Shown here: positions 40,414 to 56,533 of the stretch, in pieces
How positions within the stretch are numbered: the stretch's first letter is position 1
Layout of the letters: each line of letters begins with the position of its first letter
DNA from: Terrabacter sp. Root85
Lineage (GTDB): Bacteria > Actinomycetota > Actinomycetes > Actinomycetales > Dermatophilaceae
Direction of reading: 5' to 3'
Assembly: GCF_001429185.1 (NCBI RefSeq)
Contig: NZ_LMIW01000001.1
Location: 582,439-646,438 of the forward strand
Length of the DNA stretch: 64,000 bases
Made by a program: the position numbers and the translations under genes
The notes under the pieces: model-generated
Databases searched by the model: none
What the model saw: the letters and a program-made list of their open reading frames with translations, nothing else
What the model was told of the DNA's origin: nothing

Positions 40414-40490
40414 GGCTCCGTCAAACGACGTAGACGCGGGTCAGGCCCACGCGGGTGTCCAGCGGACGCGCGGCAGCGGATCGTCGAGGC

Positions 40491-42080
40491 ATGAACGGAC
40501 CACTCGTCACCTCCCTCGGCCACGCCGGTCTGCGCATCGACGCGCCCGGCATGCGGATGCTGTGCGACCCGTGGATGTCGCCACGCGGCGCGTTCCTCGG
40601 GTCCTGGTTCCCGTTCCCCGACAACGCGCACGTGCGGACACCGCAAATGCTCGATGCCGACTGGGTCGCCATCTCGCACGAGCACCTCGACCACTTGGAT
40701 CTGCCGCTGCTGCAGGGCCTTTCGCCATCGACGCGTCTCGTCATACCGCGCTACCCCTCGAGGGAGATGCGCAACCGCATCGCGGGTGCGGGCATCTGCA
40801 ACGTCGTCATCGAGCTCGACGCGTGGGAGCGGCTGGCCCTGAACGACCGCGGCGACTGGGTCACCGTCATCCCCGAGCTGAGCCCGATGTGCCACGACGC
40901 CGCGATCCTCGTCCACGTCGACGGGCACGCCGTGCTGCACACCAACGACGCGCGTCTCAGCGTCAGCCAGCTCCGCCGGGCCGCCGAGGAGTGCGGGCGT
41001 CCCCTCGACGTCATGGGGGTGCAGATGTCCGGGGCCTCGTGGCACCCCATCTGCTACGACTACCCGCGCGAGGTCGTCGAGCGGATCAGCTCCGAGAAGC
41101 GCTTGGGCAAGTTCCGCGCGGTGACCCGCCTGCTGCGGTCGGCGCCGCCGAAGATCGTCATGCCCTATGCCGGCCCGCCCGCCTTCCTCGACCCCGCCCT
41201 CGCGCACCACAACGCCGCGGTGCAGGCCCCCGGCATCTTCCCCGACCAGGCCCAGGCGCTGGCGTTCCTGCGCGACCGGCTCCCGGGCCAGACCTCGCTC
41301 TACCTGCTGCCCGGCGACCGCCTCCACGTCGGGCCCGGTGACGTCGAGCGCGACCCGAGGTGGGCCGACTTCTCCTTCGACGACACCTCCGAGTACCTCA
41401 GGGCGTATGCCGCCCGGCGCGCCGACGAGATCGCCGCGGTGTACGCAGAGCTGCCGGACCCCCCTCCGGAGAGCCGGATGGGCGAGCGCTTCCGCGACCA
41501 CTTCCTCGCGCTCGGAGCCCTGTCCGGCTACTTCCTGCAGAGGATCGGCATGACGGTGCGGTTCGAGGTCGTCGGCCGAGCGGGCGGCACGTGGGACGTG
41601 CGGCTGGGGCCCGAGACGACGGAGGTGGACCTGTCCCCCGTCGGTGGGACGCCCGGCTACCACCTGACGGTCGAGGCCCGCTGGCTCGACGCGGTGCTCA
41701 CGGGTCGCATCCGGTGGGAGGACCTCTTCCTCTCGCTGCGCATCCGCGCCAGCCGGGATCCCGACGTCTACAACGACTACCTCGTCGGCCTGCTCAAGCA
41801 CGCGGACCGGGACGCCCTCGAGGCCGTCGAGGGGTACGAGACGAGCCGCGACCCGGCCGAGACGGTCGTGCTCTCCGACGGCCGGACGGACTACGTCGTG
41901 AGCCGCTACTGCCCCCACGCCGGCGAGGACCTCCAGTACGGCGGCGTCGTCCGCGACGGGAGACTCCGGTGCCTCGGGCACAACTTCGAGTTCGACCTCG
42001 AGACCGGGACCTGCCTCAACGCCAGGTGCGACCCGCTCCAGGTGACCCGGGCGCCGGCGCCGCTGCCGGCCGGTCGCTGA
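40491..42080 (+). CDS. MBL-fold metallo-hydrolase domain fused to C-terminal Rieske [2Fe-2S] domain
   Basis: ATG at 40491. MBL HxHxDH motif (ISHEHLDHLD). C-terminal Rieske CxH...CxxH (CPHAGEDL...17 aa...CLGHNFEFD). Confidence 0.7.
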   Translation: MNGPLVTSLGHAGLRIDAPGMRMLCDPWMSPRGAFLGSWFPFPDNAHVRTPQMLDADWVAISHEHLDHLDLPLLQGLSPSTRLVIPRYPSREMRNRIAGAGICNVVIELDAWERLALNDRGDWVTVIPELSPMCHDAAILVHVDGHAVLHTNDARLSVSQLRRAAEECGRPLDVMGVQMSGASWHPICYDYPREVVERISSEKRLGKFRAVTRLLRSAPPKIVMPYAGPPAFLDPALAHHNAAVQAPGIFPDQAQALAFLRDRLPGQTSLYLLPGDRLHVGPGDVERDPRWADFSFDDTSEYLRAYAARRADEIAAVYAELPDPPPESRMGERFRDHFLALGALSGYFLQRIGMTVRFEVVGRAGGTWDVRLGPETTEVDLSPVGGTPGYHLTVEARWLDAVLTGRIRWEDLFLSLRIRASRDPDVYNDYLVGLLKHADRDALEAVEGYETSRDPAETVVLSDGRTDYVVSRYCPHAGEDLQYGGVVRDGRLRCLGHNFEFDLETGTCLNARCDPLQVTRAPAPLPAGR

Positions 42081-42123: not shown

Positions 42124-42768
42124 TCACTGGGGGTGGAGCAGGTAGACCGCGGTCTCGAGCAGCAAGGCCACGGTGCGCGACAGCGACGGAGCGCAGAGGT
42201 AGCCGGCATCGAGGTCCACCCGGCGCGGGACGACGTGCTCCAGGTACCACGTCTCGGGGTCCGGGGCGGGCGCGGAGGAGACCGCGGCGAGCGGTGGCTC
42301 GAGCACCCGTGAGTCGCGCATCCTGATCTGCGCCGGTCCAGTCAGTCCCGGTGTGGCCTCGAGCACCCAGCGGCACCCGGACGGGTAGCGGCGCGCCAAC
42401 GCGACCGTCTCGGGCCTGGGGCCGACGAGGGTCATCTCGCCGCGAAGGACGTTGAGCAGCTGCGGCAGCTCGTCGAGCGAGGTGCGCCGGAGCAGGGCCC
42501 CGACCCTCGTGACGCGAGGGTCGCGCCCCATCGTGATGTCGAGACCCTCGCCACCCGAGGTCATGGTGCGCAGCTTGAGGATGGTGAAGGGGCGTCCGCC
42601 CGCGCCGACCCGCTCCTGGCGGAACAGCACGGGCCCCGGGCTCGTCGTGCGGATCGCGACCGCCGCCGCCACGACGACCGGCGCGCTCAGCACGAGGGCC
42701 ACCGCGGCGACCACGACGTCAAGTGCCCGACGAGCGCGGCTGACCCGAGTGGATTCCGTCGTGCTCAG
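42124..42768 (-). CDS. sugar transferase (Bac_transf / polyprenyl-phosphate hexose-1-phosphate transferase, small type)
   Basis: Bac_transf signature (RALDVVVAAVALVLSAPVVVAAAVAIRTTSPGPVLFRQERVGAGGRPFTILKLRTM...DELPQLLNVLRGEMTLVGPRP). Start ambiguous: CTG overlapping the upstream stop, or a GTG 18 codons in. The 566-aa listed ORF is a two-gene read-through artefact. Confidence 0.65.
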   Translation of the reverse strand: MSTTESTRVSRARRALDVVVAAVALVLSAPVVVAAAVAIRTTSPGPVLFRQERVGAGGRPFTILKLRTMTSGGEGLDITMGRDPRVTRVGALLRRTSLDELPQLLNVLRGEMTLVGPRPETVALARRYPSGCRWVLEATPGLTGPAQIRMRDSRVLEPPLAAVSSAPAPDPETWYLEHVVPRRVDLDAGYLCAPSLSRTVALLLETAVYLLHPQ

Positions 42769-43775
42769 CCGGTCCCGGCCGCGACGAAGACGACGTCGAA
42801 CTGGCTCGTCACCGCGCGGACGTCGTGTCCCCGGTCCACCACGTAGGCCGACGGCGTCATGTGTGTCCACAGCCGCGCTCCCTTCTTCCGCCTCTGCTCC
42901 AGCGCCCTGGTCAGCGCGTTCGGGACGTCCCCCGGGTCGACGAGGGTGACGAGCTGGCCGCGGTAGTGCTGCGCCCAGGTCCAGATGTCGACCGCTCTCG
43001 CCCCCTCGGCGAGGGGGATGTCCACGTAGGTGTGCACGTCGGCCTCGGCGCGCGCGACGTCGCCGGGATACGCCCCGGGGTGAGCCAGTGCCTTGCGCGC
43101 CTGGAGGGTCACCCGGGTGCCCCACCGGCGTACGGCCTCGCGCCAGCTCTGCTGCATCGCGTCGTCGCGGGAGCTGCCCTGGGAGGCGTACCAGGCATCG
43201 TCCTGCAGACCCGGGCTGAGGTCGATGACGTCCACCCCGGAGGCGGCGTAGCCGTCGACCGCGGCGAGGCTCGCTCCGGGGCTCGTGCTCGCGGAGCCGG
43301 CACCGCACATGCGCATGACCGCCGTGGACGAGGCGGTCCACGACAGGCAGCCCAGCTCGGGGACGACCACGTCGATGAGCACCTTCGTGCCGGGCGAGGA
43401 GGCGTGGATGTCGGCGACGGTGCGCCTCAGCATGTCCGCCGCCTGTTCCGGGGTCGTGCCGTCGTGGTAGCCGAGCTCGTCGGCGACCTTGATGCCGGCC
43501 ACCCCTCGGCGGCGCGCGAGAGCGAGGGCGGTGCCGAGAACCTGGCGGTAACGGGTCGGTCCTGCGAGGTAGGCCTTGACGACGTCGGACTCGACCCAGA
43601 CGCCGGTCCCCGTCGCGCTGAGGTCGTCGACGAGCTCGGCGTACCGTCCGTCCGTCGGCGTCTGGGTGCCGAGGACGCTCGCCGCCCGTGGGGTCGCGCT
43701 CGGGGCCGGCGCACCGCAGCCGCCGGCGAGAAGGGCCGACGCCGCGACGACCGAGGCCAGCACGCGCCTGGTCAT
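42765..43775 (-). CDS. lipoprotein of unknown function (possible polysaccharide-processing protein)
   Basis: ATG at 43775 (MTRRVLASVVAASALLAGGCG, signal peptide plus lipobox). 336 aa. ATGA overlap with the flippase stop. Confidence 0.55.
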   Translation of the reverse strand: MTRRVLASVVAASALLAGGCGAPAPSATPRAASVLGTQTPTDGRYAELVDDLSATGTGVWVESDVVKAYLAGPTRYRQVLGTALALARRRGVAGIKVADELGYHDGTTPEQAADMLRRTVADIHASSPGTKVLIDVVVPELGCLSWTASSTAVMRMCGAGSASTSPGASLAAVDGYAASGVDVIDLSPGLQDDAWYASQGSSRDDAMQQSWREAVRRWGTRVTLQARKALAHPGAYPGDVARAEADVHTYVDIPLAEGARAVDIWTWAQHYRGQLVTLVDPGDVPNALTRALEQRRKKGARLWTHMTPSAYVVDRGHDVRAVTSQFDVVFVAAGTG

Positions 43776-45058
43776 CGCGGGGTGCCTGCCGTGAGCCGTC
43801 GCACGACGAGCACGGTGCTGACATCGGTGACGAGGTAGGCGACGGCGCTGGCCACGGCTGCCCCGGTCACCCCGAACGACGGGATGAGGGCGAGGTCGAG
43901 TCCGAGTGTCGCGAGCAGGCCGACGGCCTGCAGCACCGAACCGGTGCCGGGACGCCGGGTCCCCAGCAGGTAGCCGCCGGCCAGGCCCCCCGCGGGTGAG
44001 GCGCAGAGGCCGACGGCGATGATGGCGGCCGGCACGACGGACGCGACGAACTCCTGACCGTAGAGGGCCGGCAGCAGGGGTCCCGCGGCGAGCGCCAGCA
44101 CGACGGCACCGACGATGCCCACGCCACCGAGCCACGGCAGCTGTCGACGCACGACCGTCGCGGAGGCCTCCGGCCCGAGGCGGGCGATCCGCGGATAGCT
44201 GACCCAGGTCACCGCGAGCGACGGCAGCCTGACGAGCTCGGCGAACTTCGAGGCCACGGCATACACGCCCAGCGGTGCCGGACCGGCGATGGAGCCCAGG
44301 ACGAGGAAGTCCAGGCGCAGGTTGAGCAGGTTGACCAGGCCGCCGACCTGACCGAGCAGGCCGAACGACACGATGCTGCGGCCGAGCGGGCGGTCGGGAC
44401 GCCCGGTCATCCGCATCCCCCGGCCGTGCACCTGGCGCACGAGACGGGCCCACCCCGCCCCGGCGACGACGACGTCGGCGACGATGAGCACGACGACGAG
44501 CAGCAGGGGCCCGCGCAGTCCGAGCAGCCAGGCGACACCGAAGGCGGGGAGGAAGGCTGCTTCCTCCCCGGCAGTGACCGCGTTGGACCCCTTCCGGTCG
44601 TCGAGCCCCTGGAGGCTCGACTTGGCGACGGCGAGCGGCAGCTGGGTCGCGACACTGACGCCGGCGAGGAGCATGACCAGCGGGCTCGCCGTCGGGAGCA
44701 GGACCGCATGGATGACGGGAACGAGCAGCAGCCACACCGCGGTGCCGATCCCCATGCCGGCGCCGAGCAGCACGAGGATCGTGGGCCACAGCCGCGGGTG
44801 CCCGGCGTGGGGGCCGGCGAGGAAGTAGCCCATCGCACCCGGCAGACCACAGGCGGCGAGGACGCCGACCAGACCCGGCAGGACGCGCAGCAGGGCGAGG
44901 ACCCCGACGTCCTCGGCGCCTCCGACCCGCGCGACGAGGATCGTGCCGATCCCGAGCGCGACCACGGCGACGAGCCGGGCGCCGAGGTTGTCGAGGACGG
45001 CCCGCCCCGGGATGCGGAGGCGACGGGAGGCGTGGCTCGGGTTGAGACGCACCGACAC
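43772..45058 (-). CDS. Wzx-like polysaccharide/oligosaccharide flippase (MOP superfamily)
   Basis: GTG at 45058 with GGGGAGG 7 nt upstream. About 12-14 TM helices, of the 'polysaccharide biosynthesis protein' type. Confidence 0.6.
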   Translation of the reverse strand: MSVRLNPSHASRRLRIPGRAVLDNLGARLVAVVALGIGTILVARVGGAEDVGVLALLRVLPGLVGVLAACGLPGAMGYFLAGPHAGHPRLWPTILVLLGAGMGIGTAVWLLLVPVIHAVLLPTASPLVMLLAGVSVATQLPLAVAKSSLQGLDDRKGSNAVTAGEEAAFLPAFGVAWLLGLRGPLLLVVVLIVADVVVAGAGWARLVRQVHGRGMRMTGRPDRPLGRSIVSFGLLGQVGGLVNLLNLRLDFLVLGSIAGPAPLGVYAVASKFAELVRLPSLAVTWVSYPRIARLGPEASATVVRRQLPWLGGVGIVGAVVLALAAGPLLPALYGQEFVASVVPAAIIAVGLCASPAGGLAGGYLLGTRRPGTGSVLQAVGLLATLGLDLALIPSFGVTGAAVASAVAYLVTDVSTVLVVRRLTAGTPR

Positions 45059-45059
45059 G

Positions 45060-46451
45060 TCATCGCCTCCCCGGAACGGAGGCGGGCAGGACCTCCGGAG
45101 CCGGTCGCCGCGACACGGCCACATCGGCGAGGATCAGGTCGAGACCGGCGACGAGGCCCAGGACCGCCCACAGGTGCCGGAAGTGCAGCACCTCGTAGAA
45201 GAGGCCCGACATGAGGAACGCCGCGCCGAGGGCGGCGAGGAAGTGCGGCGACGGGACGAGCCGCGTCACCGGCCCCGGGTCGCCGCTGCGTCCCCGACCT
45301 CCCTCGGCCACGCCACGTCCCCGGCGTCCCGCGACGCGCGCCAGCCGTGCCGCCACGGACGCGAGCAGGACGACGAGGCCGACGCCTCCGATGAGGCCGA
45401 GCTCGACGAGCGTCGCCACGTAGTCGTTGTGCGCCTCCTTGACGTAGGGAGCAGGGATCGACGCCAGGGCCTCCTTCGTCCGCCCGGGACCGACACCGAC
45501 CAGGGTCCCGTCCCAGAAGAGCCGGACGCCTTCGGAGAAGAGGACCTGCCGGTCCTGGCTCGACGAGTCCCCCCGACCGAACGAGTCGTGCAGGACCGGA
45601 CCACCGGCGGCGGCGCTCGCCTGCACCGACCCCCAGTCGACCGAGGTGACGACCAACCCGGCGGCCGCCGCCAGGACGCACGCGAGCCCGGTCGCGGCGA
45701 TGGCACCATGCGACCGCCATGACCCGACGACGACCCCGACGCCGAGGCCCACCAGCATGCCGAGCATGGCGCCGTTCGACCCGGTGAGGACGGTCGCGAC
45801 GACGAGGAGGAGCACGGTCGCAGCGCGCGCGAGGCGGCGGCGCGGGTGTCGCGAGGCGAGGACGACGAACAGGCAGGCGACGAAGTAGTTGCCGGCGAGG
45901 TTGGGGTCGCCGAAGGTCAGGGCGGACCGCGAGCCGTCCCGGGTGGTCTGGCCGGCGAGCCACGGGATCCCGGCGAGGCGACCGGCCACCAGCAGGCCGG
46001 CGCTGACGATCCCGCTCCAGCACCACGTGACGCACACGAGTCGGACGAGGGAGTGGTCGGCACGCACGGCGTTGGCGATGGTGGCGGCCCAGAGCAGGAG
46101 GAACAGGTCCTGTCCGAGGACCGTCGTCGAGAGGAGGTCCCGGCTGGCGAGCGCGGCGACGGCACCGGCCAGGACCAGGAGCCACATGCCTGCGGCGTAC
46201 GGCACGTGGAGGCGTACGCCGTTGCTCGACAGCCAGAGGAGCACCCCACCCATCGCGAGGAGGATGGGCAGGTCCGCAGGTGAGGTGTTGCCGGGACCGG
46301 TGGGCGTGAGGACCGGCATGCACGCGATGGCTGCGGCGATGAGGAGGCGCACGGACCGTGACGCCGGCACCACGGTCCGGCGCGCCGGCAGCGGTGCGGA
46401 CGCAGCGGCCCGTCCTGTCGTCGTGGGCGCAGCGGCCGCCGTCGTCGTCAC
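45060..46451 (-). CDS. O-antigen ligase / Wzy-like polymerase family membrane protein
   Basis: Wzy_C-type signature (EAHNDYVATLVELGLIGGVGLVVLL) within a polytopic membrane protein. GTG at 46451 with GGAGG upstream, in a GTGA overlap with the upstream stop. Confidence 0.65.
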   Translation of the reverse strand: MTTTAAAAPTTTGRAAASAPLPARRTVVPASRSVRLLIAAAIACMPVLTPTGPGNTSPADLPILLAMGGVLLWLSSNGVRLHVPYAAGMWLLVLAGAVAALASRDLLSTTVLGQDLFLLLWAATIANAVRADHSLVRLVCVTWCWSGIVSAGLLVAGRLAGIPWLAGQTTRDGSRSALTFGDPNLAGNYFVACLFVVLASRHPRRRLARAATVLLLVVATVLTGSNGAMLGMLVGLGVGVVVGSWRSHGAIAATGLACVLAAAAGLVVTSVDWGSVQASAAAGGPVLHDSFGRGDSSSQDRQVLFSEGVRLFWDGTLVGVGPGRTKEALASIPAPYVKEAHNDYVATLVELGLIGGVGLVVLLASVAARLARVAGRRGRGVAEGGRGRSGDPGPVTRLVPSPHFLAALGAAFLMSGLFYEVLHFRHLWAVLGLVAGLDLILADVAVSRRPAPEVLPASVPGRR

Positions 46452-47449
46452 GACCCCACCTCCGCGAGGAGGGACGCGTGGGCGCGGGCGAACGGCGGTG
46501 AGTCGCTCGTCGTCGCCACCTCGCCGAGACCCACGAGCACGGCGTCCCGCCAGGCCGTGGTGCTCGGGTCGCGCCCGAGCGCGGGCGCGATGAAGTCGGC
46601 CACACCGGCGGCATACCACCCCTCGCCCCTCAGCAGATGCCGCACGGGGTCACCCCATGCACCCGCGCGGAGGCCCGCGTGCCCGTGGACCCGGGCACCG
46701 CTCGGGGTGTGCCGGTCGAGGTAGAGCGTGTAGGCGAGGGCGAAACGCACGCGGTCCCACAGTGGGGATCCACCGAAGCGAGCGTGCTCCCAGTCGACGA
46801 CGCCGGTGACCCGACGACCCGTCCGCAGGAGGTTGCCGCACCAGAAGTCGCCGTGGGTGACGTGACCCGTGTCGAGGTCGCCCACCCGAGCCCTGGCGCG
46901 CCGGCACGCCTGCGCCGCCGCCATCCCGGCCTCGTCCGGCCAGCGGCTCTCGAGCGCAGCGGCGCCGTCGACCTCCGGCTGCGGCGGGACCGTGAGGCCG
47001 TGCAGCTGGGAGAGCCACCCGGCCGCCGCGTCGAAGTCGGCCCGCACGTCACGGCGACGGCCCGTGTGGTGCCAGCGGTGGTAGTCGACCGAGAACGGAC
47101 GACCCGACGAGACCGTCGTGACGAGGAACGTGCCGGCCACGGTCTCGTGCAGGGCGAGCAGGCGGGGGACCGTCCCGCCGACGAGACCGGGGTCGAGCTG
47201 CCCCAGCTGATCGAGTGCGGCGGCCTCGGCACGGACCGACCGGGCGGCCCCACCGGTCAGGGCCACCTTCACCGCGAGGACCGGCGTCGTCGCACCGGAG
47301 GGTGTCGCCATGACGACCGCCTTGGGATGGTCGTCCCGCGACATGGCCACGACCGCGAGCCGGACCGTCCGGTCGTCCAGGTGCCGCCGCAGGACGTCCT
47401 CGACGGCCCCGAGGTCGGGGAACGCCGTCTGCCTCGTCGACGTGGTCAT
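46448..47449 (-). CDS. phosphotransferase enzyme family protein (APH/choline-kinase-like kinase fold)
   Basis: ATG at 47449 (MTTSTRQTAFPDL...). Catalytic motif HGDFWCGNLL...VVDWEHARFG (HGDxxxxN...D). ATGA overlap with the upstream stop. Confidence 0.65.
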   Translation of the reverse strand: MTTSTRQTAFPDLGAVEDVLRRHLDDRTVRLAVVAMSRDDHPKAVVMATPSGATTPVLAVKVALTGGAARSVRAEAAALDQLGQLDPGLVGGTVPRLLALHETVAGTFLVTTVSSGRPFSVDYHRWHHTGRRRDVRADFDAAAGWLSQLHGLTVPPQPEVDGAAALESRWPDEAGMAAAQACRRARARVGDLDTGHVTHGDFWCGNLLRTGRRVTGVVDWEHARFGGSPLWDRVRFALAYTLYLDRHTPSGARVHGHAGLRAGAWGDPVRHLLRGEGWYAAGVADFIAPALGRDPSTTAWRDAVLVGLGEVATTSDSPPFARAHASLLAEVGS

Positions 47450-47868
47450 GGTCGGTGGACGATGACCATGCGCCCGGCCACGAGCGGACCGACCCAGCGG
47501 ACGAGGTGGCGGTTCCGGCCGAGGCACGTCGTGGCCGTGATGAGCAGGGATCCGCGGGACCGCCCCGGGGGGACGGTCGCGAAGGCGTTCCAGAACCACG
47601 TCAGGCTCTCGACCGAGTCCTCGACGACGAAGGCTGCCGTCCTCAGGCCCGGCAGCACGACGAGCTCACGGTCGACGACGAGGCCGGCGTCCCGTGCGAG
47701 ACGTGTCAGGCGCCTGGCGCTGAGCCGCCGCCCGTCGAGGAGGACGAGCCGCTTCGCCGACGACACTCCCGCGATCGCCGCCGCCGAGCCCCGTCGGGAG
47801 CCGCGGACCTCGACCACCGGCGTGCCACCCGGCACGAGCAGGGCCAGCGCGGCCTCGAGGGCGCTCAC
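47446..47868 (-). CDS. hypothetical protein (140 aa)
   Basis: GTG at 47868 with GGGGAGGG upstream, in a GTGA overlap with the GT4 stop. No recognisable family. The listed ORF 47446..48681 has a long antisense-like extension. Confidence 0.4.
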   Translation of the reverse strand: MSALEAALALLVPGGTPVVEVRGSRRGSAAAIAGVSSAKRLVLLDGRRLSARRLTRLARDAGLVVDRELVVLPGLRTAAFVVEDSVESLTWFWNAFATVPPGRSRGSLLITATTCLGRNRHLVRWVGPLVAGRMVIVHRP

Positions 47869-49040
47869 GACGCCCTCCCCCACCCGGGCACCGACGTCAG
47901 CAGCGGCCGGCGGACCTCGGGGTCGCCGGTGTAGACCTCCTGCAGGGTCGCGCCCAGGGTGCTCGCGTCGTAGCGGGTGCCGAGCTGGGCCCTGGCCCGC
48001 TCCGCCCAGGCAGCGGCCTGTCTCGGGTGGGTGAGTGCGTGGTCGAGCGCCCGGGCCAGCTGGTCCGGGTCCTGGGGCGCCACGAGCAGACCGGTCACTC
48101 CGGGGACCACGACGTCGGAGACCGCGTTCACCGACGTCGCGACCACGGGTATGCCGCACGCCTGGGCTTCGACGATGGCGCACGGCAAGCCCTCGTAGCG
48201 GCTCGACATGGCGAAGACGTCGAACGCCGGCAGCAGCTCGGCCACGTCCGTGCGGTGACCGAGCAGCAGCACGCGACGTTCGAGGCCCGACGCCTGCGCT
48301 CGACGGGCGGTCTCCTCCAGGAGGGGACCGCCACCGACCCAGACGAGCACGGCCGGCGTCGCCATCCGGGCCAACGCCTCGAGCATGACCTCCGGCGCCT
48401 TCTGGAAGTCCATCCGTCCGACCGTGCCGACGACCGTCGCGTCGGCGGGCAGCCCGAGCAGCGCCCGCGCGCGCAAGCGTGACGCCGGCGACGCGGTGAC
48501 CGACGCGGGCTCGACCGCCGGACCGATCGTGACGAGCTGCTCGGGGCGGACCACCTTCCGCCGCAGCGCCTCGACCGCGACGCCGGTGCCGATGGCGAGA
48601 TAGGCGTCCGTGACGTGCGAGAGCTCGCGCTCGGTACGGATGTAGGCGTGCCGCACGGCAGCGGACTGGAAGTCGTGCCAAGGGAATCCGTGCAAGGTGT
48701 GCACGATGCGGGGCACGCCTGCTCTCGAGGCCGCCACGCGTCCCAGGACGCCCGCCTTGGCGCTGTGGGTGTGCACGACGTCGAAGCCCTCGGCCCTGAG
48801 CAGCCGCGAGATCGACCGGAAGGCCCTGGCGTCCTGGGCCGGGTTGATCGGTGAGACGAGCTCCGGCACGACGACCACGTCGACGCCGCTCGAGCGGGCG
48901 ACGTCGAGGAGAGCGTCACCCGAGCCGACGACGAGAGTGCTCGCGTACAGCTCTCGGGGCAGGCTCACCGCCCCGCGCACGGCGACCCCGCCGGCCCCGG
49001 CGACGCACCGGGTGATGATGTGCGCGACACGCTGCGTCAT
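47865..49040 (-). CDS. glycosyltransferase family 4 (GT-B fold)
   Basis: ATG at 49040 (MTQRVAHIITR...). C-terminal GT4 motif (EGLPCAIVEAQACGIPVVATSVNAVSDVV). ATGA overlap with the upstream stop. Confidence 0.8.
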   Translation of the reverse strand: MTQRVAHIITRCVAGAGGVAVRGAVSLPRELYASTLVVGSGDALLDVARSSGVDVVVVPELVSPINPAQDARAFRSISRLLRAEGFDVVHTHSAKAGVLGRVAASRAGVPRIVHTLHGFPWHDFQSAAVRHAYIRTERELSHVTDAYLAIGTGVAVEALRRKVVRPEQLVTIGPAVEPASVTASPASRLRARALLGLPADATVVGTVGRMDFQKAPEVMLEALARMATPAVLVWVGGGPLLEETARRAQASGLERRVLLLGHRTDVAELLPAFDVFAMSSRYEGLPCAIVEAQACGIPVVATSVNAVSDVVVPGVTGLLVAPQDPDQLARALDHALTHPRQAAAWAERARAQLGTRYDASTLGATLQEVYTGDPEVRRPLLTSVPGWGRAS

Positions 49041-50095
49041 GCCCGCGCTCCTGTCATCCCCGGGTTCGTCGCTCGCCCGGCTCGCGCGGCCTGCTCGGCG
49101 CGGTCGACGAGCTCGACGAGGGACGTCCCCGGACGTGCCGGGAGGACGACCTCGACGCAGTGGAGGGACCGGGCGAGGCGCTCCGACTCGCCCACGATCG
49201 ACGGATGCGCCGGGCCGAGGCCGGTGCCCAGTGCCAGCGTCGCGGCGAAGGCCCAGTACCGGCGCAGCTCGCCCGCGGCGTACGTGCCCGTGGCGAGGGC
49301 TCTCGCGGCGACCACCGGCGGGACCGGCCTCACCGAGGGTCGCGCCCCGGAGCCACGTCGGAGCACGAGGAGCAGGGACGGCGTCATGGCGGGCAGCGTG
49401 CCGTCCCACGGCTGCTCCACCCGGCCGTGGGGCATCGACCGACGGCCGGCCCGGACCGGGCCCGCGTCGACGCGTCGGGGCTCACGCAGCCCGTAGATCA
49501 TCGCCCCGTCGTAGGTGCAGAGGTTGTCGCTGACCGACGCGCCCTGGTCCGGCCCGAGGCCGGCGACGAGCGTCGACTTGCCCACGCCCCCCGGCCCGGC
49601 GAGGAGCACGCCCAGACCTGCGACCTGCGCCGCCGAGACGTGCAGCGGAACGGCTCCCCCGACACCGGCCCACCACAGGGTCGGGTACTGCAGGAGCGCG
49701 GCACGCCAGAGCAGCTCGGTGCGCCCGGGAGCCACGAGGCGCAGGGCGCGGTGGGAGGGCCCCGGGCGGGAGCGTGCCGTCACCGAGACTGCCCTCGGCG
49801 ACGGCTCGACGAGCAGGTCCAGACCGCTCGCGCAGGCGTCGGTGAGCACGACGCGACGGCCGTCTGCGAAGGCACCGCGGGTGAGCGGCGTCAGGCCGTG
49901 CACCTCGAACGGCTCGCGAGAGGACTCCAGCTGCACGACGACATCGGCGTCCCGGCCCGGCTGCGGCACCTCGGCCCGGTGCGGCGCCTCCGCTCGAGGA
50001 GGGTCGCCGAGGGCGCGGTCGATGACCTGCGACCAGCCGCGTGGCACCGACCGGACCTCCAGGGTCAGGCCGCAGGACTTGGCGCGCCGGCTCAC
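49037..50095 (-). CDS. HprK-like / P-loop (Walker A) putative kinase
   Basis: GTG at 50095 with GGAGG 5 nt upstream, overlapping the Wzz-like stop (GTGA). Walker A LLAGPGGVGKSTLVAGL embedded in an HPr-kinase-C-domain-like context. Family assignment tentative. Confidence 0.5.
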   Translation of the reverse strand: MSRRAKSCGLTLEVRSVPRGWSQVIDRALGDPPRAEAPHRAEVPQPGRDADVVVQLESSREPFEVHGLTPLTRGAFADGRRVVLTDACASGLDLLVEPSPRAVSVTARSRPGPSHRALRLVAPGRTELLWRAALLQYPTLWWAGVGGAVPLHVSAAQVAGLGVLLAGPGGVGKSTLVAGLGPDQGASVSDNLCTYDGAMIYGLREPRRVDAGPVRAGRRSMPHGRVEQPWDGTLPAMTPSLLLVLRRGSGARPSVRPVPPVVAARALATGTYAAGELRRYWAFAATLALGTGLGPAHPSIVGESERLARSLHCVEVVLPARPGTSLVELVDRAEQAARAGRATNPGMTGARA

Positions 50096-51444
50096 GGCAT
50101 CCTCCACATCTTGTGGCTGCTCAGGGCCCCGTGGTCGACGCGACGTGGCTCGGGGACGCCGTCGGCCGGATCCACCGGGATCTCGGGGGTGACCTCCGTG
50201 AGGGGGGTGATGGGGGGACGGTGGACCCGGCCACCCTCCGCGAGCGTCTGCCGGTCGATGAGCCACCGGCGCCGGAAGGTGAGCACGCCGACGACGGGCC
50301 AGTCCATCACCGCGGCGGTGCGGGCCAGCTCCTCGAGGCGGCGCTGCGCCTCGACGGTCGGGCTGAGCACGATCACGACGGGGTCGGCAGGGCGACCGAC
50401 GTCCTCGGCCGGCCGCGCGACCGTCGCGTCGGGGGCGTGGTCGACATGCAGGCCGGTGAGCGCCTCGAGCTCGGCGCAGACGCGCGCAGCCCACCGGTCG
50501 TGCTTCCTCTCGACCGGGAGCAGCAGCAACGGCCGCCCGGTGAACCGGGCGGCGAGCACGGCTGCAGCACCGCCGAACTCACGCAGGGCGCGGGCACCCC
50601 GTGGTCCCCCGAGGTCGAGCGTGGGCAGGTGCCCGAGGAGCGGGGCGTGCAGCTCGGCCGCCACCCACCGACGGCCCCGGACCCGGGGGTGGAGTGCCTC
50701 GAGGATCGCCACGAGGCCCAGCGCGAGGATCAGCGCGGCCAGACCCGCCAGAGCCACGAGCTGGCCGACCTTTGGGCCGACCGGATCAGAGGACGCCGTC
50801 GCGGGATCGAGCAAGCCGATGCTCGATCGCTCCGACGCCGCCAGGACGAGGTCGGAGCGCTGCCGCAGCAGGTCCGTGAGGGTCGGCGCGTCCGCCGCGA
50901 TCCGCGCCTGCAGCTCGAGTACCGCGCCCGGGGCAGCCGCCGCCAGCTGGTGGATCAGGCCGTCTCGCTCCTTCGTGAAGCGGCTGATCTGGTGGTCGAG
51001 AGCGGTCATCTTCACGGCGTCGCTCTGGTGAGCGGTGTTGGCGTACTTGAGAGCCTGCTGGACGAGCGAGTTCGCGACGATGACCGAACGGTCCGCGTTG
51101 CCCGTGGTGACGAGGACGTCGTTGACCGTGGAGACGCCCACTCGGTTCACGACGATCGAGTGGGTGGCGAAGGGAGTCGGGTCGCCCTCGAGCCCAGCTG
51201 CAGCCATGGCGTGACGCACCGTGTTGGGGGTCGTGATCACACCCTGGAGCCACTGTGTCGCAGCGTCCGCCTGGACATTGGTGCTGGCGAGACCACCGGA
51301 CATCTGGACCCGCGCCGAGGCCTGGTACTGCAGGTCCTGGTTGGTGGCGTAGACGCCCGCCGCCAATGACGCCACCAGGACCAGCAACCCGATCAGCCAC
51401 CAGTAACCACCGATCATGCGGCGGAAGGCTTCATCGATGCGCAT
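50092..51444 (-). CDS. Wzz-like polysaccharide co-polymerase (chain-length determinant family) with a non-kinase C-terminal domain
   Basis: N-terminal TM helix (WWLIGLLVLVASLAAGVYA), a periplasmic helical region, a second TM helix (LVALAGLAALILALGLVAILEAL), then a 170-aa cytoplasmic domain with no Walker A. Confidence 0.6.
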   Translation of the reverse strand: MRIDEAFRRMIGGYWWLIGLLVLVASLAAGVYATNQDLQYQASARVQMSGGLASTNVQADAATQWLQGVITTPNTVRHAMAAAGLEGDPTPFATHSIVVNRVGVSTVNDVLVTTGNADRSVIVANSLVQQALKYANTAHQSDAVKMTALDHQISRFTKERDGLIHQLAAAAPGAVLELQARIAADAPTLTDLLRQRSDLVLAASERSSIGLLDPATASSDPVGPKVGQLVALAGLAALILALGLVAILEALHPRVRGRRWVAAELHAPLLGHLPTLDLGGPRGARALREFGGAAAVLAARFTGRPLLLLPVERKHDRWAARVCAELEALTGLHVDHAPDATVARPAEDVGRPADPVVIVLSPTVEAQRRLEELARTAAVMDWPVVGVLTFRRRWLIDRQTLAEGGRVHRPPITPLTEVTPEIPVDPADGVPEPRRVDHGALSSHKMWRMP

Positions 51445-51472
51445 GTCTTCTCTCTCTCAAGACGTCCGGGAA

Positions 51473-52936
51473 TCAGTGCAGGACGGCGAACGGCCGCATC
51501 CGCGCCACCGGGCGGATGATCCGGTGCGAGGACAGGACCGACATCGCCGCGTTGACGCCGGCGTCGTCGAGGTGCGCCGTCTCGCTCGGAGCGGTGTCGT
51601 CGTAGCGGAACCGGAGCGTGGAGCGCCCCGCGGGATCGGGCTGGGAGGCCCCGCTCGTCGCGAACTGGTCGATGACGGTGCCCGCCCCGTGGCAGGCGGA
51701 GTGGAGGCTCTGGCCGCTGGACGGGCCGGCGACCGCGAGGTACGACGACGTCCGGTGCGTCCCGGGCAGCAGGACCGCCTGACCCGTCTGCGCGAAGGTG
51801 GTCCCGGGCACCATGAGGTGCGCCGGGTAGGCGCGGCACGAGTTGTGGCGGTGCACGACGGCACGTTCGCCGGCGACGTCCTCCTCGTAGATCGAGTTGT
51901 GGGGCGAGTCGACGACGAGCCTGCCCGGGGCGCCGCCGAAGGCGTCCGCCGCCAGCTGCCGGAGTGCCTGGTAGGTCGCCATGCGGAAGGCGAAGCCGTA
52001 GTTCATCGCCGCCGCGTTGGCGAGCATGAGCCGCTTCCCCTCGTCCGAGTCGAGACCGACCGGCGGGCACGCCGAGCTGAAGAAGAGGCGCATCCGCTCG
52101 CGGACCTGCTGGGTGGATCGCGCCGTGGCGAGGTGGAACAACGGCTTCTGGACCGCCATCGCCGCCCTCATGACGCGGGCGGTGTCACGCCGGCGGGCGA
52201 ACAGGTGACCGATCTCGCCCGTCAGCACGCCGCCGCCGGCGTGGTACTGCAGCGTCACCTGGCCCTCGTGGACGCCGAGCTGCCGGGCGGCGACCGGGTC
52301 GAGGATCTCCTCGACCACCTGCAGCTCGACGAAGTGGTTCGTCGGACCCACGGTGCCGAAGCGGAGCCGGGCCAGCTGCCACGTGAGCGCGGGGACCTCG
52401 GCGACGAGACGCTCGCTGCCGCCCCACGCCGCGAGGTCGATCCGGCCGCTCTCCTCCACCCGCTCGAGCTCGGCGGGGTCGACCCCGTTCCGCTCGACGG
52501 CGAAGCCGGCGCCCTCGGTGGCGGCGGCGACCACGTCCCGATACGACAGGTCGCGCCGGTTGGTCGTGGGATAGGGGTAGCGCTCGCGCACCCGGCGGTA
52601 GAAGTCGCTGACGGCGGCATCGCTCGGTCGGTCGCAGCCCAGGGCGATGAGCGCCATGCCGCAGTTGACCGAGGAGCTCGTCAGCGTCGGTCGGATCGTC
52701 CCTGCCGTCGCCACGGCGATGCTCGAGGGCATCTCCATGGCCGACTTGTGGTGGAAGTCGGGAAGCACGACCGGTGGCGCCACGAGGTCCATCCCGAGCG
52801 TGGCGGAGTTCAGCGACGCGACGAGGTCTCGGTCCGCCGGGACGCGGTCGCTGTCGAACACGCGTGCCTCGTGGTGGCCTGCCGGCCGGACCGACGTCGG
52901 CTCCGCGGCGCGACCGGCGATGACGGTGATCTTCAT
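51473..52936 (-). CDS. RtcB-family (RNA-splicing ligase-like) protein
   Basis: RtcB hallmark motifs are present: SVNCGMALI (metal-binding Cys), GPTNHFVELQ (the GxxNHFxE motif), VVHRHNSCRA (cf. HRKGA) and ACHGAGTV (cf. the HGAGR nucleotidyl-His motif). 487 aa. Confidence 0.6.
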   Translation of the reverse strand: MKITVIAGRAAEPTSVRPAGHHEARVFDSDRVPADRDLVASLNSATLGMDLVAPPVVLPDFHHKSAMEMPSSIAVATAGTIRPTLTSSSVNCGMALIALGCDRPSDAAVSDFYRRVRERYPYPTTNRRDLSYRDVVAAATEGAGFAVERNGVDPAELERVEESGRIDLAAWGGSERLVAEVPALTWQLARLRFGTVGPTNHFVELQVVEEILDPVAARQLGVHEGQVTLQYHAGGGVLTGEIGHLFARRRDTARVMRAAMAVQKPLFHLATARSTQQVRERMRLFFSSACPPVGLDSDEGKRLMLANAAAMNYGFAFRMATYQALRQLAADAFGGAPGRLVVDSPHNSIYEEDVAGERAVVHRHNSCRAYPAHLMVPGTTFAQTGQAVLLPGTHRTSSYLAVAGPSSGQSLHSACHGAGTVIDQFATSGASQPDPAGRSTLRFRYDDTAPSETAHLDDAGVNAAMSVLSSHRIIRPVARMRPFAVLH

Positions 52937-52970
52937 GGGGCGAACCTGTCCTCGTGGGGTGCGGGCTGCA

Positions 52971-54464
52971 TCAGTAGTCGTCCGGGTACGGGGCGGACGT
53001 CTGGAGGGCGAACACGTCGCCGGGTTCGGGGCGGTAGACCGGCAGCACCGCAGCGAGGGCGCGGCGCACGTCGTCCGCCGCGTTCCGCCGGGCGGCGTCG
53101 TAGAGCGCGAGCATCAGGGCGTCGAAGTGCTCGTGCACGGGGACGGCCTGCGCGCCGAAGATGCGTGGATGACTCGTGGGGAGGCATTCCTCGTCGTCGC
53201 TGAACAGCGACTCGTGGAGCTTCTCCCCGGGACGGAGCCCGGTGAACCGGATGTGGACGTCGCGGACGCCGAGCTGCCGTGCGAAGTTGGCCACGAGGTC
53301 GACGATCCGGACGGGTGAGCCCATGTCGAGCACGAACGTCTCCGAGCCGGTCGTCAGGTGCGCGGCCTCGAGCACGAGCCCGACCGCCTCCTCGATCGTC
53401 ATGAAGTACCTCGTGACGTCCGGATGCGTCACGGTCACGTCCCGTCCGGCCGCCATCTGGGCCACGAGCACGGGAAGGAGCGAGCCGCGGCTGCCGAGCA
53501 CGTTGCCGAAGCGTACGGCCGAGACCACGGTGCGGCCCCCCGCGTGCTTCTTGACCACCTGCTCGGCCAGGGCCTTGGTCGCTCCCAGGACGGAGGTCGG
53601 GTCAGCGGCCTTGTCGGTGGAGATGGCGACGAAGCGCTCGACTCCCGCCTCGACCGCGGCGACCAGCACGTTCTCGGTGCCCTGGACGTTCGACTTCACG
53701 CCCTCGCACGGATGCTCCTCGAGCATCGGCAGGTGCTTGAGCGCCGCCGCGTGGAAGACGACCTGCGGCTTGTACTGCCCCATGACCTGCCGCATGCGTT
53801 CGGCGTCGCGGATGTCGGCCACGACGGTGTCGTGCGACTCGAGGAACGCCTCTCCCCGCAGCTCGAGCTGGAGGCGGTGGAGGTTGGACTCGTCGTGGTC
53901 GAGCATGACGAGGCGGTGGGGCACGAAGCCGTTGACCTGGCGGCACAGCTCGCTGCCGATCGAGCCACCGGCCCCGGTCACGAGCACCGTTCTGCCCGTG
54001 ATGATCTCGGCAACCTCCGGTGACGCGACGTGGAGCTCGCAGCGGCCGATCAGGTTGGCGACGTCGAGCGAGCACATGTCCGTGCCCACGACGTCGCGTC
54101 GCAGCAGGGCCACGAAGGACGGCAGCCTGCGGACACTCGCCCCGACGCGGGCGGCGGCGGTGGCCAGCCTCGTCACCTCGGCCTCGGGAAGCCCCGGGAT
54201 CGCGAGGACGACGACGTCGATCCGCTCGGCCGTCGCGACCCGCAGGACGTCGGCCAGCCGGCCGAGCACGGGGAGGTGGCGAACCCGGCGCTTGTCGGGG
54301 TCGTCGTCGAGGAAGCCCACGGGACACAGCCCGAAGTCGTCGACTCGCTGCAGGTCCCGCGCGAGAGCCTTGCCTGCTGCCCCGGCTCCGACGATGAGGG
54401 TCCGGAGGCTGAGTCCCGGACCGGCGCTGCCGAGCCCCGGCAGGGTGACCAGCTGTGACGTCAT
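52971..54464 (-). CDS. polysaccharide biosynthesis protein CapD/PglF-like (membrane-associated NDP-sugar 4,6-dehydratase)
   Basis: N-terminal CoA-binding-like domain. SDR core VLVTGAGGSIGSELCRQ...FHAAALKHLPMLEEHP. 497 aa. Confidence 0.85.
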   Translation of the reverse strand: MTSQLVTLPGLGSAGPGLSLRTLIVGAGAAGKALARDLQRVDDFGLCPVGFLDDDPDKRRVRHLPVLGRLADVLRVATAERIDVVVLAIPGLPEAEVTRLATAAARVGASVRRLPSFVALLRRDVVGTDMCSLDVANLIGRCELHVASPEVAEIITGRTVLVTGAGGSIGSELCRQVNGFVPHRLVMLDHDESNLHRLQLELRGEAFLESHDTVVADIRDAERMRQVMGQYKPQVVFHAAALKHLPMLEEHPCEGVKSNVQGTENVLVAAVEAGVERFVAISTDKAADPTSVLGATKALAEQVVKKHAGGRTVVSAVRFGNVLGSRGSLLPVLVAQMAAGRDVTVTHPDVTRYFMTIEEAVGLVLEAAHLTTGSETFVLDMGSPVRIVDLVANFARQLGVRDVHIRFTGLRPGEKLHESLFSDDEECLPTSHPRIFGAQAVPVHEHFDALMLALYDAARRNAADDVRRALAAVLPVYRPEPGDVFALQTSAPYPDDY

Positions 54465-55648
54465 CGCGTGCCCCCGATCCGCCAGAGCGCCGCACAGACC
54501 TCGTCGACGTCGTCATCGGTGAGGTTCTGGTCGAAGGGCAGCGACAGGGTGGTGGCGAAGACGGCGTCGGCGCCGGGAAGCCCGCCGGCAGGCACGACGC
54601 AGTGCTCGACGTGCCACGTCAGCCGGTGCAGGGGGATGAAGTGCACCGAGGTCCCGATGCCCTGGTCGTTGAGCCGGTCGATGAGCTCGTCGCGGGCGAC
54701 CGGGAAGCCTGAGTGGACCCGCACCGCGTAGAGGTGCCAGGCGTGTCGGCCCTCGACCGGGCGCGGCGGCAGGCTGACCCAGGGGAGGCTGCTGAGCTGC
54801 GCGTCGTAGCGCGCCGCCACCTCGCGACGGCGTGCCTGGTCGGTGTCGAACCGGCGCAGCTGCGCACGACCGATCGCTGCCTGGACGTCCGTGAGGTTCG
54901 CCTTGAGGCCGTCGTCGGCCACGTCGTAGCGCCAGCTCGCCCCGGGCGAGTAGCGGCGCCAGGCGTCGCGGGACATCCCGTGCAGCCGGGTGCGGGCCAT
55001 GACCTCGGCGAAGTCCTCGTCGAGGGTCGTCACCATGCCGCCCTCCCCGATCGCCAGGTTCTTCGTGGCGTAGAAGCTGAAGCAGGTCGCGCGGGAGATC
55101 GACCCGACCGGTCGCGTCCCGACGCACGTGCCGAGCGCGTGCGCGGCGTCCTCGATGACGTGGTCGAGTCCGATCCCGGCTGCCGCGGCGGCGGCCTCCA
55201 CGTCGACCGGGTTGCCGCCGAGGTGCATGACGACCATGGCCGACACGCCACCGACGTCGCGCACGGCAGCGCGGATGTGCTCCTCGGCCGGGACGGCCGT
55301 CCAGGGGTCGACATCGACGAGGACCGGCACGAGGCCGGCATGGGTGATGGCTCCGGCTGCGCCGCAGAACGTGTTCGTCGACATCAGCACGCGCGACCCA
55401 CGGGCCAGACCCAGGCCCCGCAGAGCGAGCTCCAGTCCCGCGGTGCATGAGCTGACCGCGACGCCCCGGGCGGCACCGACGTGGTCGGCGAACTCTCGCT
55501 CGAAGTCGGCGACCTGCTGCCCCGTCGTCACCCACCCCGACTCGAGGACCTGGGCGACGGCGGAGCGGGCATCGGGACCGATCACCGTGCGCGCGAAGGG
55601 AATCGAGCGAGCCGCGGCCACTCGTGGTGCGGATGTGTGGACCGTCAT
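54461..55648 (-). CDS. DegT/DnrJ/EryC1/StrS family aminotransferase (sugar aminotransferase)
   Basis: ATG at 55648. PLP-Lys region (SFYATKNLAIGEGGM). 395 aa. ATGA overlap with the CapD start. Confidence 0.85.
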   Translation of the reverse strand: MTVHTSAPRVAAARSIPFARTVIGPDARSAVAQVLESGWVTTGQQVADFEREFADHVGAARGVAVSSCTAGLELALRGLGLARGSRVLMSTNTFCGAAGAITHAGLVPVLVDVDPWTAVPAEEHIRAAVRDVGGVSAMVVMHLGGNPVDVEAAAAAAGIGLDHVIEDAAHALGTCVGTRPVGSISRATCFSFYATKNLAIGEGGMVTTLDEDFAEVMARTRLHGMSRDAWRRYSPGASWRYDVADDGLKANLTDVQAAIGRAQLRRFDTDQARRREVAARYDAQLSSLPWVSLPPRPVEGRHAWHLYAVRVHSGFPVARDELIDRLNDQGIGTSVHFIPLHRLTWHVEHCVVPAGGLPGADAVFATTLSLPFDQNLTDDDVDEVCAALWRIGGTR

Positions 55649-55740
55649 GGCTACCCCTGGACGTGAAGAGACTGCGAACGTGGGCGCGGGTGGTGCCCGC
55701 TCCCTCGACGGTAGGAACAGGGCGGCAGCCCCACACCCGC

Positions 55741-56454: not shown

Positions 56455-56533
56455 AGCATCGTTCGGGACGGTGCCTCGCGCACCCGCCGTCTGGACGACC
56501 TCCGGCTACGTCACATGGCCGACCGTGTCGTCC

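Follow-up and report, generated by a model that had tools for sequence, protein, structure and literature searches.

Terrabacter sp. Root85 encodes, within a polysaccharide locus, a divergent member of the RtcB family that is very probably a dedicated enzyme of the glycan pathway and not an RNA ligase. The protein, of 487 amino acids (aa), is the product of an open reading frame (ORF) in a 64,000-nucleotide stretch of contig NZ_LMIW01000001.1 (positions 582,439 to 646,438), hereafter the window, from whose first letter all its coordinates are counted. To our knowledge, RtcB is known only as an enzyme that joins RNA or DNA ends, in which a histidine-GMP adduct activates a phosphate monoester. 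We suggest that the window protein has been neofunctionalised into a dedicated cytoplasmic enzyme that would apply His-GMP chemistry to a lipid-linked glycan intermediate, at a phosphate placed there by a kinase, a fuller reading that we hold with equal measures of belief and doubt. The particular scheme in which a kinase acts first and RtcB then ligates is tentative.

We favor a role in glycan synthesis over one in RNA metabolism because the linkage of this gene to glycan genes survives rearrangement, because the contacts to the 5'-OH strand are lost from a protein whose core is invariant, and because kinase-like genes co-occur with it. A first-pass annotation of this DNA had suggested that an RtcB homolog in such a locus could ligate a phosphorylated, non-RNA substrate, for example by joining a glycan phosphate to an acceptor. 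The same observations bear out the coupling to a glycan pathway, possibly with a substrate other than RNA; the joining of a glycan phosphate to an acceptor is a step that we still infer.

The ORF encodes a divergent RtcB-family protein

The ORF is a real gene. In a window with a G+C content of about 72%, its third-position G+C of 0.93 is typical for a real gene of this genome, and a GAGGA-like ribosome-binding site precedes its ATG. The product matches the Pfam family RtcB (PF01139) over nearly the full length of the profile (positions 12-424 of 426; E=4.2e-47, 161.8 bits against a cut-off of 27), and the RtcB motifs that had been read from the sequence in the first pass were all found: VNCGM (residues 90-94), GPTNHFVE (197-204), HRHN (362-365) and CHGAG (415-419). 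Its closest relative of solved structure is the RtcB of Pyrococcus horikoshii (E=7e-31), and its identity to solved structures is about 24%. An AlphaFold2 model was obtained with a predicted local distance difference test (pLDDT) score of 72.3 and a predicted template modeling (pTM) score of 0.75. At E<=1e-3, a structure search with this model returned RtcB structures only (16 chains, E 1e-16 to 1e-19, TM-scores 0.48-0.64), and membership of the RtcB family is confirmed both by the Pfam match and by the fold. The NCBIfam equivalog models for the RNA ligase RtcB scored well under their cut-offs, NF007153 at 69.9 bits against 407 and TIGR03073 at 46.2 against 271.8. The closest homolog, at 98% identity, comes from Terracoccus sp. 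273MFTsu3.1 (Intrasporangiaceae).

No transmembrane or hydrophobic segment was found in the sequence of the window protein, which is therefore predicted to be cytoplasmic. The cytoplasm is where lipid-linked repeat units are assembled before flipping, and this fits the frequent position of the RtcB gene next to a flippase or exporter gene.

A distinct S-type clade

A search of 1.84 billion representative proteins retrieved full-length relatives down to 25-47% identity. When these distant relatives were aligned, a broad group, which we call S-type, was found to have the unusual residues of the window protein, and the others looked canonical. A profile built from 23 distant S-type members scored S-type proteins at 341-617 bits; below a gap came canonical RtcB at no more than 295 bits, with eukaryotic RTCB at about 263. 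In a neighbor-joining tree, 78 of the 79 S-type sequences formed one clade, and none of the 61 canonical sequences fell inside it. We assign the window protein to this clade, which is distinct by sequence from the canonical enzymes.

Residues kept, lost and gained at the active site

Residues were compared between these 79 S-type and 61 canonical sequences in P. horikoshii numbering, and within a close subfamily of 81 relatives of the window protein. A large core is invariant or at least 80% conserved in both groups: Asp65, His67, Asn97, Cys98, Asn202, His203, Phe204, Glu206, His234, His329, Asn330, His349, Arg350, Ser385, His404, Gly405, Ala406 and Gly407. The nucleophile His404 (E. coli His337) corresponds to His416 of the window protein, within CHGAG, and is present in all 81 close relatives and in 74 of the 79 clade members. 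The ligands of metal M1, Cys98, His234 and His329 (Cys92, His232 and His346 in the window protein), are invariant in the subfamily and kept in 73, 79 and 79 of the 79, respectively. At the M2 site, His203 (window His201) and Cys98 are kept and Asp95 is lost. This aspartate, a ligand of the metal that holds the beta and gamma phosphates of GTP (PMC9745838), is found in 61/61 canonical sequences and is replaced by Ser (67), Ala (11) or Gly in 79/79 S-type sequences; the window protein has Ser89, and serine occupies the position in 81/81 close relatives. Of the six metal and GMP ligands that alignment to known RtcB enzymes was expected to recover, Cys98, His203, His234, His329 and His404 are thus in place and Asp95 is not. 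Guanine is read by Glu206, Ser385 and Lys480 (PMC9745838, PMC8668186), and the first two are kept as Glu204 and Ser398 in the window protein.

The residues that hold the nucleic acid fare differently. Arg238 forms hydrogen bonds to the first two phosphodiesters of the 5'-OH strand, and sealing is 200-fold slower when its E. coli counterpart is mutated (R189A); the phosphate that follows is bound by Arg190 and Gln194, His242 packs against the first base, and Asn202 contacts the 5'-OH itself (PMC8051266). Arg238 is invariant in canonical RtcB (61/61) and is Gly in 62 of 79 S-type proteins and in the whole close subfamily (81/81). Arg190 (60/61 canonical) becomes Ile, Leu or other residues, Gln194 (60/61) is variable, and so is His242 (50/61; Gly or Ala), while Asn202 is conserved in 78 of the 79. 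Other canonical invariants (each 61/61) have changed as well: Arg101 is Ala, Gly or Ser, Lys351 is His in 72 S-type sequences, Arg408 remains in 22 of 79 (Thr420 in the window protein) and Arg412 in 32 of 79 (window Gln424). Tyr451-Lys452, of the E-x-P-x-A-Y-K motif (also 61/61), gives way to acidic residues, and alignment to solved structures shows this segment as L-D-D-x-G, four residues shorter, in 81/81 close relatives; the significance of Arg408, Arg412 and Tyr451 is judged here purely by their conservation.

The S-type proteins have also gained invariant residues, namely Lys64 and Arg249 (both 79/79), Glu68, Pro70, Ser71-Ser72, His364 and Asn365. In addition, S-type proteins contain an insertion of about 27 residues that canonical RtcB does not have (window residues ~252-280, DNA ~52097-52183), and it bears the near-invariant Lys264, Pro265 and His268; its start lies in a stretch of the model, residues 235-265, that is predicted at low confidence. 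The new invariant residues are consistent with a remodeled anion-binding site. We read the comparison as a histidine-nucleotide core that is preserved beside a polynucleotide-binding surface and an M2 site that have been rebuilt. Within the clade, some proteins carry Asp in place of Cys98 and keep His404, such as that encoded at L085:9001-10464, a possible change of metal chemistry.

Linkage to glycan genes in near and distant relatives

A genome scan with one genome per species gave 218 relatives, and 80 loci were retained, at 62-98% identity. They span Intrasporangiaceae, Dactylosporangium, Nonomuraea/Streptosporangiaceae, Kribbella/Nocardioidaceae, Jatrophihabitans, Pseudonocardiales and Kineosporiaceae. 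By tblastn of the window neighbors, RtcB is accompanied by one and the same set of genes, arranged in at least four orders, two of them confirmed by Pfam-labeled gene calls. One runs LuxR-DegT-PglF-RtcB-Wzz-partner-GT4-APH-Wzy-Wzx, where GT4 is a family 4 glycosyltransferase and the partner is the kinase-like protein described below; another runs LuxR-Wzz-DegT-PglF-partner-GT4-RtcB-small-APH-Wzy-Wzx. In a third, a beta-helix/PKD gene of about 5 kb is inserted behind RtcB, and in a fourth the GT4-PglF-DegT block is inverted. RtcB is the best-conserved member of the locus, with a median identity of 65% against 28-57% for the others (loci from L013 on, in which RtcB identity is 63-76%). The placement of RtcB is not accidental, because the same gene set persists through these changes of order, and chance co-location is ruled out by the synteny survey together with the contexts found across the clade.

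Among loci with long flanks there is a single apparent exception, L047. We considered whether its RtcB is a free-standing paralog outside a glycan context and rejected this, since the histidine kinase, response regulator and beta-helix/PKD genes of the locus are kept. In several loci, the gene right behind that of S-type RtcB encodes a very large secreted-type protein with beta-helix and PKD repeats (882-2414 aa; L081:11581-16080; L085:10482-17726; L047:11666-14314).

The linkage extends to the distant parts of the clade, for which we examined eight S-type members on long contigs, a sample of a clade of more than 1,000 proteins and not a census. All eight are surrounded by glycan-assembly loci, including one in a Thermoflexia (Chloroflexota) metagenome-assembled genome (MAG). 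These loci encode GT4 and GT2 glycosyltransferases, Wzx or a PglK/MsbA-like ABC exporter, Wzy_C, Bac_transf, PMT_2 (GT-C), and UbiA with a geranylgeranyl reductase, as well as epimerases, dehydratases, Asn-synthase-like amidotransferases and radical SAM/SPASM proteins. Genes for phosphate chemistry occur in some of them: APH in L083, L086 and L092, PAP2 with Sulfatase/Phosphodiest in L092, and a CDP-alcohol phosphotransferase in L091. No RtcA, archease, PrfH or other RNA-repair gene was found within ~10 kb in any S-type context. Neither of two canonical RtcB controls lies in a glycan locus; one of them is near LigT, Macro and tRNA synthetase genes and has two polysaccharide-deacetylase-family genes downstream.

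Locus L091 is unusual in carrying two tandem S-type RtcB genes (L091:7563-10395) with the CDP-alcohol phosphotransferase gene 4 bp behind them. Copy a keeps all core residues and copy b has Pro in place of the nucleophilic His404, which suggests a pair made of an active and an inactive member. That the two copies have lost complementary motifs was ruled out by the alignment, which shows the loss of the nucleophilic His in copy b alone and no loss in copy a.

Kinase-like partners of S-type RtcB

The product of the gene at 49037-50095 has homologs (349-385 aa) whose genes immediately precede RtcB in six of the eight distant contexts, in five of them with a gene overlap of 4-8 bp and in L088 at a distance of 23 bp. 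Its structural model matches phosphoenolpyruvate carboxykinase (PEPCK) and HPr kinase, and a Walker A loop is present. The sequence match to ScmC (PF27840 / TIGR04249) is weak and below cut-off. Because its model matches PEPCK and HPr kinase, we could discard the idea that it is a MinD/ParA-type bacterial tyrosine kinase, as in CpsC/CpsD pairs. Radical SAM/SPASM genes lie near S-type RtcB in L083, L084, L086 and L087, and Asn-synthase-like genes in L083, L084 and L086; their recurrence echoes the peptide-modification cassette behind the name of ScmC, the nearest family of the partner.

A second kinase-like protein of the locus belongs to the APH family, with HGDFWCGN as its catalytic loop and a DWE motif as well. 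Among proteins of solved structure it is closest to hygromycin-B 4-O-kinase (E=7e-4), an enzyme that phosphorylates a hydroxyl of the aminoglycoside hygromycin B. RtcB, whose chemistry starts from a phosphomonoester, hence travels with one or two kinase-like proteins that could supply one.

Proposed mechanism and alternatives

We can outline how these proteins might act together. The partner with the kinase fold, the APH kinase or both would place a phosphomonoester on a sugar of the undecaprenyl-diphosphate-linked repeat unit, or on a precursor of it. The RtcB homolog would self-nucleotidylate on His416 with GTP and a divalent metal and move the GMP onto the sugar phosphate, giving sugar-O-P-P-G, an analogue of RNA(3')pp(5')G. 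A hydroxyl would then attack and GMP would leave, with a phosphodiester-linked substituent or bridge as the result; the hydroxyl could belong to another sugar, to a small alcohol or to the same sugar, and the 4-amino group made by the DegT enzyme is also conceivable as the nucleophile. Finally, Wzx would flip the finished unit. In a variant, the reaction would stop once the sugar phosphate carries GMP, and the enzyme would be a maker of a GDP-activated phospho-compound. The most specific form of this proposal, that S-type RtcB and the kinase of PEPCK/HPr-kinase fold form a two-enzyme module which activates a lipid-linked glycan phosphate as glycan-ppG and joins it to a hydroxyl or amine, is put forward with some reserve.

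Several points weigh against this proposal. The guanine-O6 contact Lys480, kept in most S-type proteins (65/79), is the C-terminal His487 in the window protein, and in the subfamily it is His in 61, Asn in 17 and Thr in 2 of 81, so that the nucleotide used by the actinobacterial proteins could differ from GTP. The replacement of Asp95 by Ser may impair nucleotidylation: human RTCB D119A shows weak guanylylation and no ligation (PMC10944509). Cys98 is Asp in 6 and His404 is Pro in 5 of the 79 S-type proteins, and since some members lack one or the other, part of the clade may not use histidine-nucleotide chemistry. Confidence in the structural model is moderate, and stretches at the entrance of the active site are low, namely residues 45-71 (with Asp60, His62 and Lys64) and 235-265 (with Gly236). 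No kinase-fold partner is encoded within 9 kb of RtcB in L085 and L091, two of the eight distant contexts, and the pairing of kinase and RtcB is thus frequent but not universal. The relatives of the partner also leave a wide choice of substrate, HPr kinases being protein kinases and PEPCK acting on a small acid. Lastly, a phosphodiester in the polymer of this locus is a prediction.

Four other explanations were weighed against these data. The enzyme might only activate, converting a phospho-sugar or phospho-alcohol into a GDP-linked donor from which a separate transferase forms the final bond. Among the genes of the conserved locus we saw no dedicated sugar-1-phosphate nucleotidyltransferase, the CDP-alcohol phosphotransferase gene of L091 follows its RtcB genes by 4 bp, and Arg238, which positions the incoming 5'-OH strand in canonical RtcB, is lost. 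We nevertheless find this unlikely: Asn202, the contact of the attacking 5'-OH (PMC8051266), is kept in 78 of 79 S-type proteins, a CDP-OH_P_transf gene was seen in just one distant context out of eight and nowhere in the window locus, and canonical RtcB, as is generally known of the family, keeps its ppG intermediate bound and does not release it. It is decidedly improbable that the protein is a true enzyme for joining or capping RNA or DNA ends that merely shares the operon, for instance for co-regulated stress protection. Such an enzyme would explain why this is a full-length RtcB-family protein with nucleophilic His, M1 ligands and guanine-contacting Glu and Ser intact, and Myxococcus xanthus has RtcB paralogs with divergent end-capping activity, as cited in PMC10630183; yet the linkage to glycan genes outlasts repeated rearrangement and spans the clade, RNA-repair genes are absent within ~10 kb in all S-type contexts, the equivalog scores for the RNA ligase are well under cut-off, and Arg238, Arg190, Gln194, His242 and Asp95, which are 82-100% conserved in canonical RtcB, are gone.

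A phosphoprotein could also be the substrate, if the HPr-kinase-like partner phosphorylated a protein of the pathway (the Wzz-like co-polymerase, for instance, or a carrier) on serine and RtcB then nucleotidylated or ligated it, for example for chain-length control or for attachment of glycan to protein. HPr kinases, whose fold the partner shares with PEPCK, do phosphorylate protein serines, the partner gene of the window comes immediately after that of the Wzz-like protein, and peptide-type enzymes (Mur ligase, ATP-grasp, radical SAM/SPASM, Asn synthase) occur in some distant loci. We give this idea little credence, as the adjacency to Wzz is not conserved (DegT and PglF separate Wzz from the partner in the other common gene order) and no candidate substrate protein co-varies with the kinase-RtcB pair. 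That the protein is a catalytically dead scaffold, kept for the assembly of a biosynthetic complex, strikes us as very improbable indeed. The loss of the metal ligand Asp95 and of several residues essential in canonical RtcB would be expected of a pseudoenzyme, and a few clade members without Cys98 or His404 exist, including the L091 copy with Pro for His404. Against it stand the invariance of D65, H67, C98, N202, H203, E206, H234, H329, N330, S385, H404, G405 and G407 in 81/81 close relatives (A406 in 80/81), the conservation of core residues in 73-79 of 79 proteins across the clade, the rank of RtcB as the most strongly conserved protein of the locus, and the new clade-specific invariant charged residues around the site. 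A conserved core with new invariants points to an active site that has been changed and not abandoned.

Organization of the window locus

We take the surroundings of RtcB (Table 1) to be a Wzx/Wzy-type glycopolymer locus of about 15 genes whose product starts from a 4-amino-4,6-dideoxy-HexNAc-type sugar. The set of a Wzx/Wzy locus is complete, with Bac_transf (E=1e-49), Polysacc_synt (E=8e-9), Wzy_C (E=2e-15) and a weak GNVR/polysaccharide co-polymerase (PCP) match. The genes next to RtcB are on the same strand with short gaps or 4-bp overlaps, forming a tight operon, and its immediate neighbors are, as the first-pass annotation had it, a sugar-dehydratase gene (E=1.7e-101) and a Wzz-like gene, the latter a weak call. 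In the direction of transcription, the order is histidine kinase, response regulator, LuxR-type, DegT, PglF-type, RtcB, Wzz-like, 352-aa protein, GT4, ~140-aa ORF, APH kinase, Wzy_C, Wzx, 341-aa protein and Bac_transf. On the opposite strand, beyond Bac_transf, lie the metallo-beta-lactamase/SCP2/Rieske gene and the beta-helix gene.

Table 1. Features of the window locus. Counts give presence among 51 related actinobacterial loci with full 10-kb flanks, in which neighbors were traced by tblastn.
Feature	Position	Strand	Evidence	Loci
S-type RtcB-family protein, 487 aa	51473..52936	minus	Pfam, PDB alignment, fold match, residue conservation	
PglF/CapD/PseB-like UDP-HexNAc 4,6-dehydratase (Polysacc_synt_2)	52971..54464	minus	Pfam E=1.7e-101; NCBIfam PseB E=2e-57, below cut-off	47/51
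DegT/PglE/PseC-like sugar aminotransferase	54461..55600	minus	Pfam E=5.9e-99; NCBIfam PseC E=2e-84, below cut-off	49/51
Wzz/PCP-like chain-length determinant, weak call	50092..51444	minus	GNVR E=2e-4; NCBIfam chain-length models E=3.5e-7; all below cut-offs	44/51
P-loop kinase-like partner (ScmC-like, PEPCK/HPr-kinase fold), 352 aa	49037..50095	minus	Walker A GPGGVGKST, aa 167-175	50/51
GT4 glycosyltransferase	47865..49040	minus	Glycos_transf_1 E=9e-34	50/51
Small ORF, ~140 aa, translationally coupled upstream of the APH gene	47446..47868	minus	tblastn; no Pfam match	34/51
APH-family (aminoglycoside/hygromycin-kinase-like) phosphotransferase	46448..47449	minus	Pfam APH E=2.8e-11	49/51
Wzy_C-type polymerase or O-antigen-ligase-like membrane protein	45060..46619	minus	Pfam E=2.2e-15	46/51
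Wzx-type flippase (Polysacc_synt)	43772..45124	minus	Pfam E=8e-9	41/51
Conserved 341-aa protein, no family match	42765..43790	minus	Same position in L082; also conserved in Dactylosporangium	38/51
Small PglC-type polyprenyl-phosphate phosphoglycosyl transferase (Bac_transf)	42124..42780	minus	Pfam E=1.3e-49	38/51
Metallo-beta-lactamase / SCP2 / Rieske fusion, locus edge	40455..42080	plus	Pfam	19/51 (count partly limited by flank length)
Right-handed beta-helix protein, likely secreted glycan-active enzyme	38498..39958	plus	Beta_helix E=2.7e-16	31/51
Regulatory genes: LuxR-type; response regulator; histidine-kinase ATPase domain protein	55741-56454; 56534-57190; 57181-57861	minus	Pfam	38-42/51

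Some gene boundaries are approximate. The DegT ORF reaches 56137 and its start is placed from the length of its homologs; the ORF of the APH gene extends mechanically to 47599, with the ATG at 47449 as the probable start. The ~140-aa ORF is called as a gene of 139-145 aa overlapping the APH start in L081 and L082. Neither its homologs nor those of the 341-aa protein have a Pfam match, and the 341-aa ORF itself, whose gene sits between those of the flippase and the phosphoglycosyl transferase, has no Pfam or NCBIfam match. No Pfam-recognizable N-acetyl- or acyltransferase for the 4-amino group was seen at 38000-58000, for which reason we list that group among the possible nucleophiles; it may be acylated by one of the ORFs without a family, left free or used otherwise.

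The conservation of the regulatory genes with the locus suggests dedicated two-component control. Their stretch (55741-57861) holds two tandem LuxR-type regulators, one with only a weak receiver-domain match, and a short histidine-kinase fragment with HATPase_c only. At the other edge, the fusion protein at 40455..42080 is unusual in combining a metallo-beta-lactamase fold, an Rv3818-like SCP2 domain and a Rieske [2Fe-2S] domain, and the same 541-aa gene is present in L082.

Implications

In the literature searched, we found no report that links RtcB to glycan or polysaccharide synthesis, and searches on ScmC and HprK-related proteins returned only unrelated acronyms. Many database entries of the clade carry the automatic label "tRNA-splicing ligase", an annotation that would have to be corrected if our reading is right. 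The S-type proteins would then be the first RtcB-family enzymes with a substrate other than nucleic acid, extending the chemistry of the family beyond nucleic acids. They would also reveal an unrecognized route to phosphodiester, cyclic-phosphate or phosphoramidate decorations of bacterial surface polymers, present in Actinomycetota and in at least one Thermoflexia (Chloroflexota) MAG. Finally, three widespread "hypothetical" partners would gain roles: the protein of PEPCK/HPr-kinase fold, the APH-like kinase with its small ORF and the 341-aa protein.

Comparison with known systems

The window protein resembles canonical RtcB (P. horikoshii PH1602, E. coli RtcB and human RTCB) in its fold, in the His of HGAG, in the M1 ligands and M2 His, and in Asn202, Asn330, Glu206 and Ser385. 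Given this shared core, it probably activates a phosphomonoester through the same histidine-nucleoside monophosphate (His-NMP) intermediate. It departs from the canonical RNA ligase in the M2 Asp, the contacts to the 5'-OH strand, the Tyr-Lys motif and the equivalog models. Context separates the two as well: canonical RtcB keeps company with RtcA, archease, RtcR or PrfH, and S-type RtcB with glycan assembly.

RtcA, the RNA 3'-phosphate cyclase, offers a mechanistic analogue. In that enzyme a covalent His-NMP turns a terminal phosphomonoester into an activated, pyrophosphate-linked NMP, which a neighboring hydroxyl then attacks, and cyclic or intramolecular phosphodiesters are possible products. 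The predicted activation of a phosphate through His-NMP is common to both, but RtcA has an unrelated fold and family and uses ATP, and none is encoded in these loci. A precedent within the family comes from Myxococcus xanthus RtcB1-3, of which RtcB3 caps 5'-phosphates of DNA and RNA according to work cited in PMC10630183. These paralogs, compared here from their description, show that bacterial RtcB proteins can diverge in the phosphate end that is nucleotidylated, although they still act on nucleic acid.

The predicted outcome is shared with CDP-alcohol phosphotransferases, TagF-type polymerases, LicD and Stealth proteins, all of which arrive at a sugar-phosphate-alcohol phosphodiester of a cell-surface polymer by way of a nucleoside diphosphate-activated phosphate. 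Their folds are unrelated, however, and they draw on a pre-made CDP- or UDP-activated donor, whereas an S-type protein would start from a monophosphate made by a kinase and activate it on the enzyme via His-GMP. The kinase-like partner, for its part, has its fold and P-loop in common with the HPr kinase/phosphorylase and PEPCK superfamily and with ScmC. It differs in having no HPr or phosphotransferase system (PTS) context, and in being found in glycan loci beside RtcB and not in the radical-SAM peptide cassette of ScmC.

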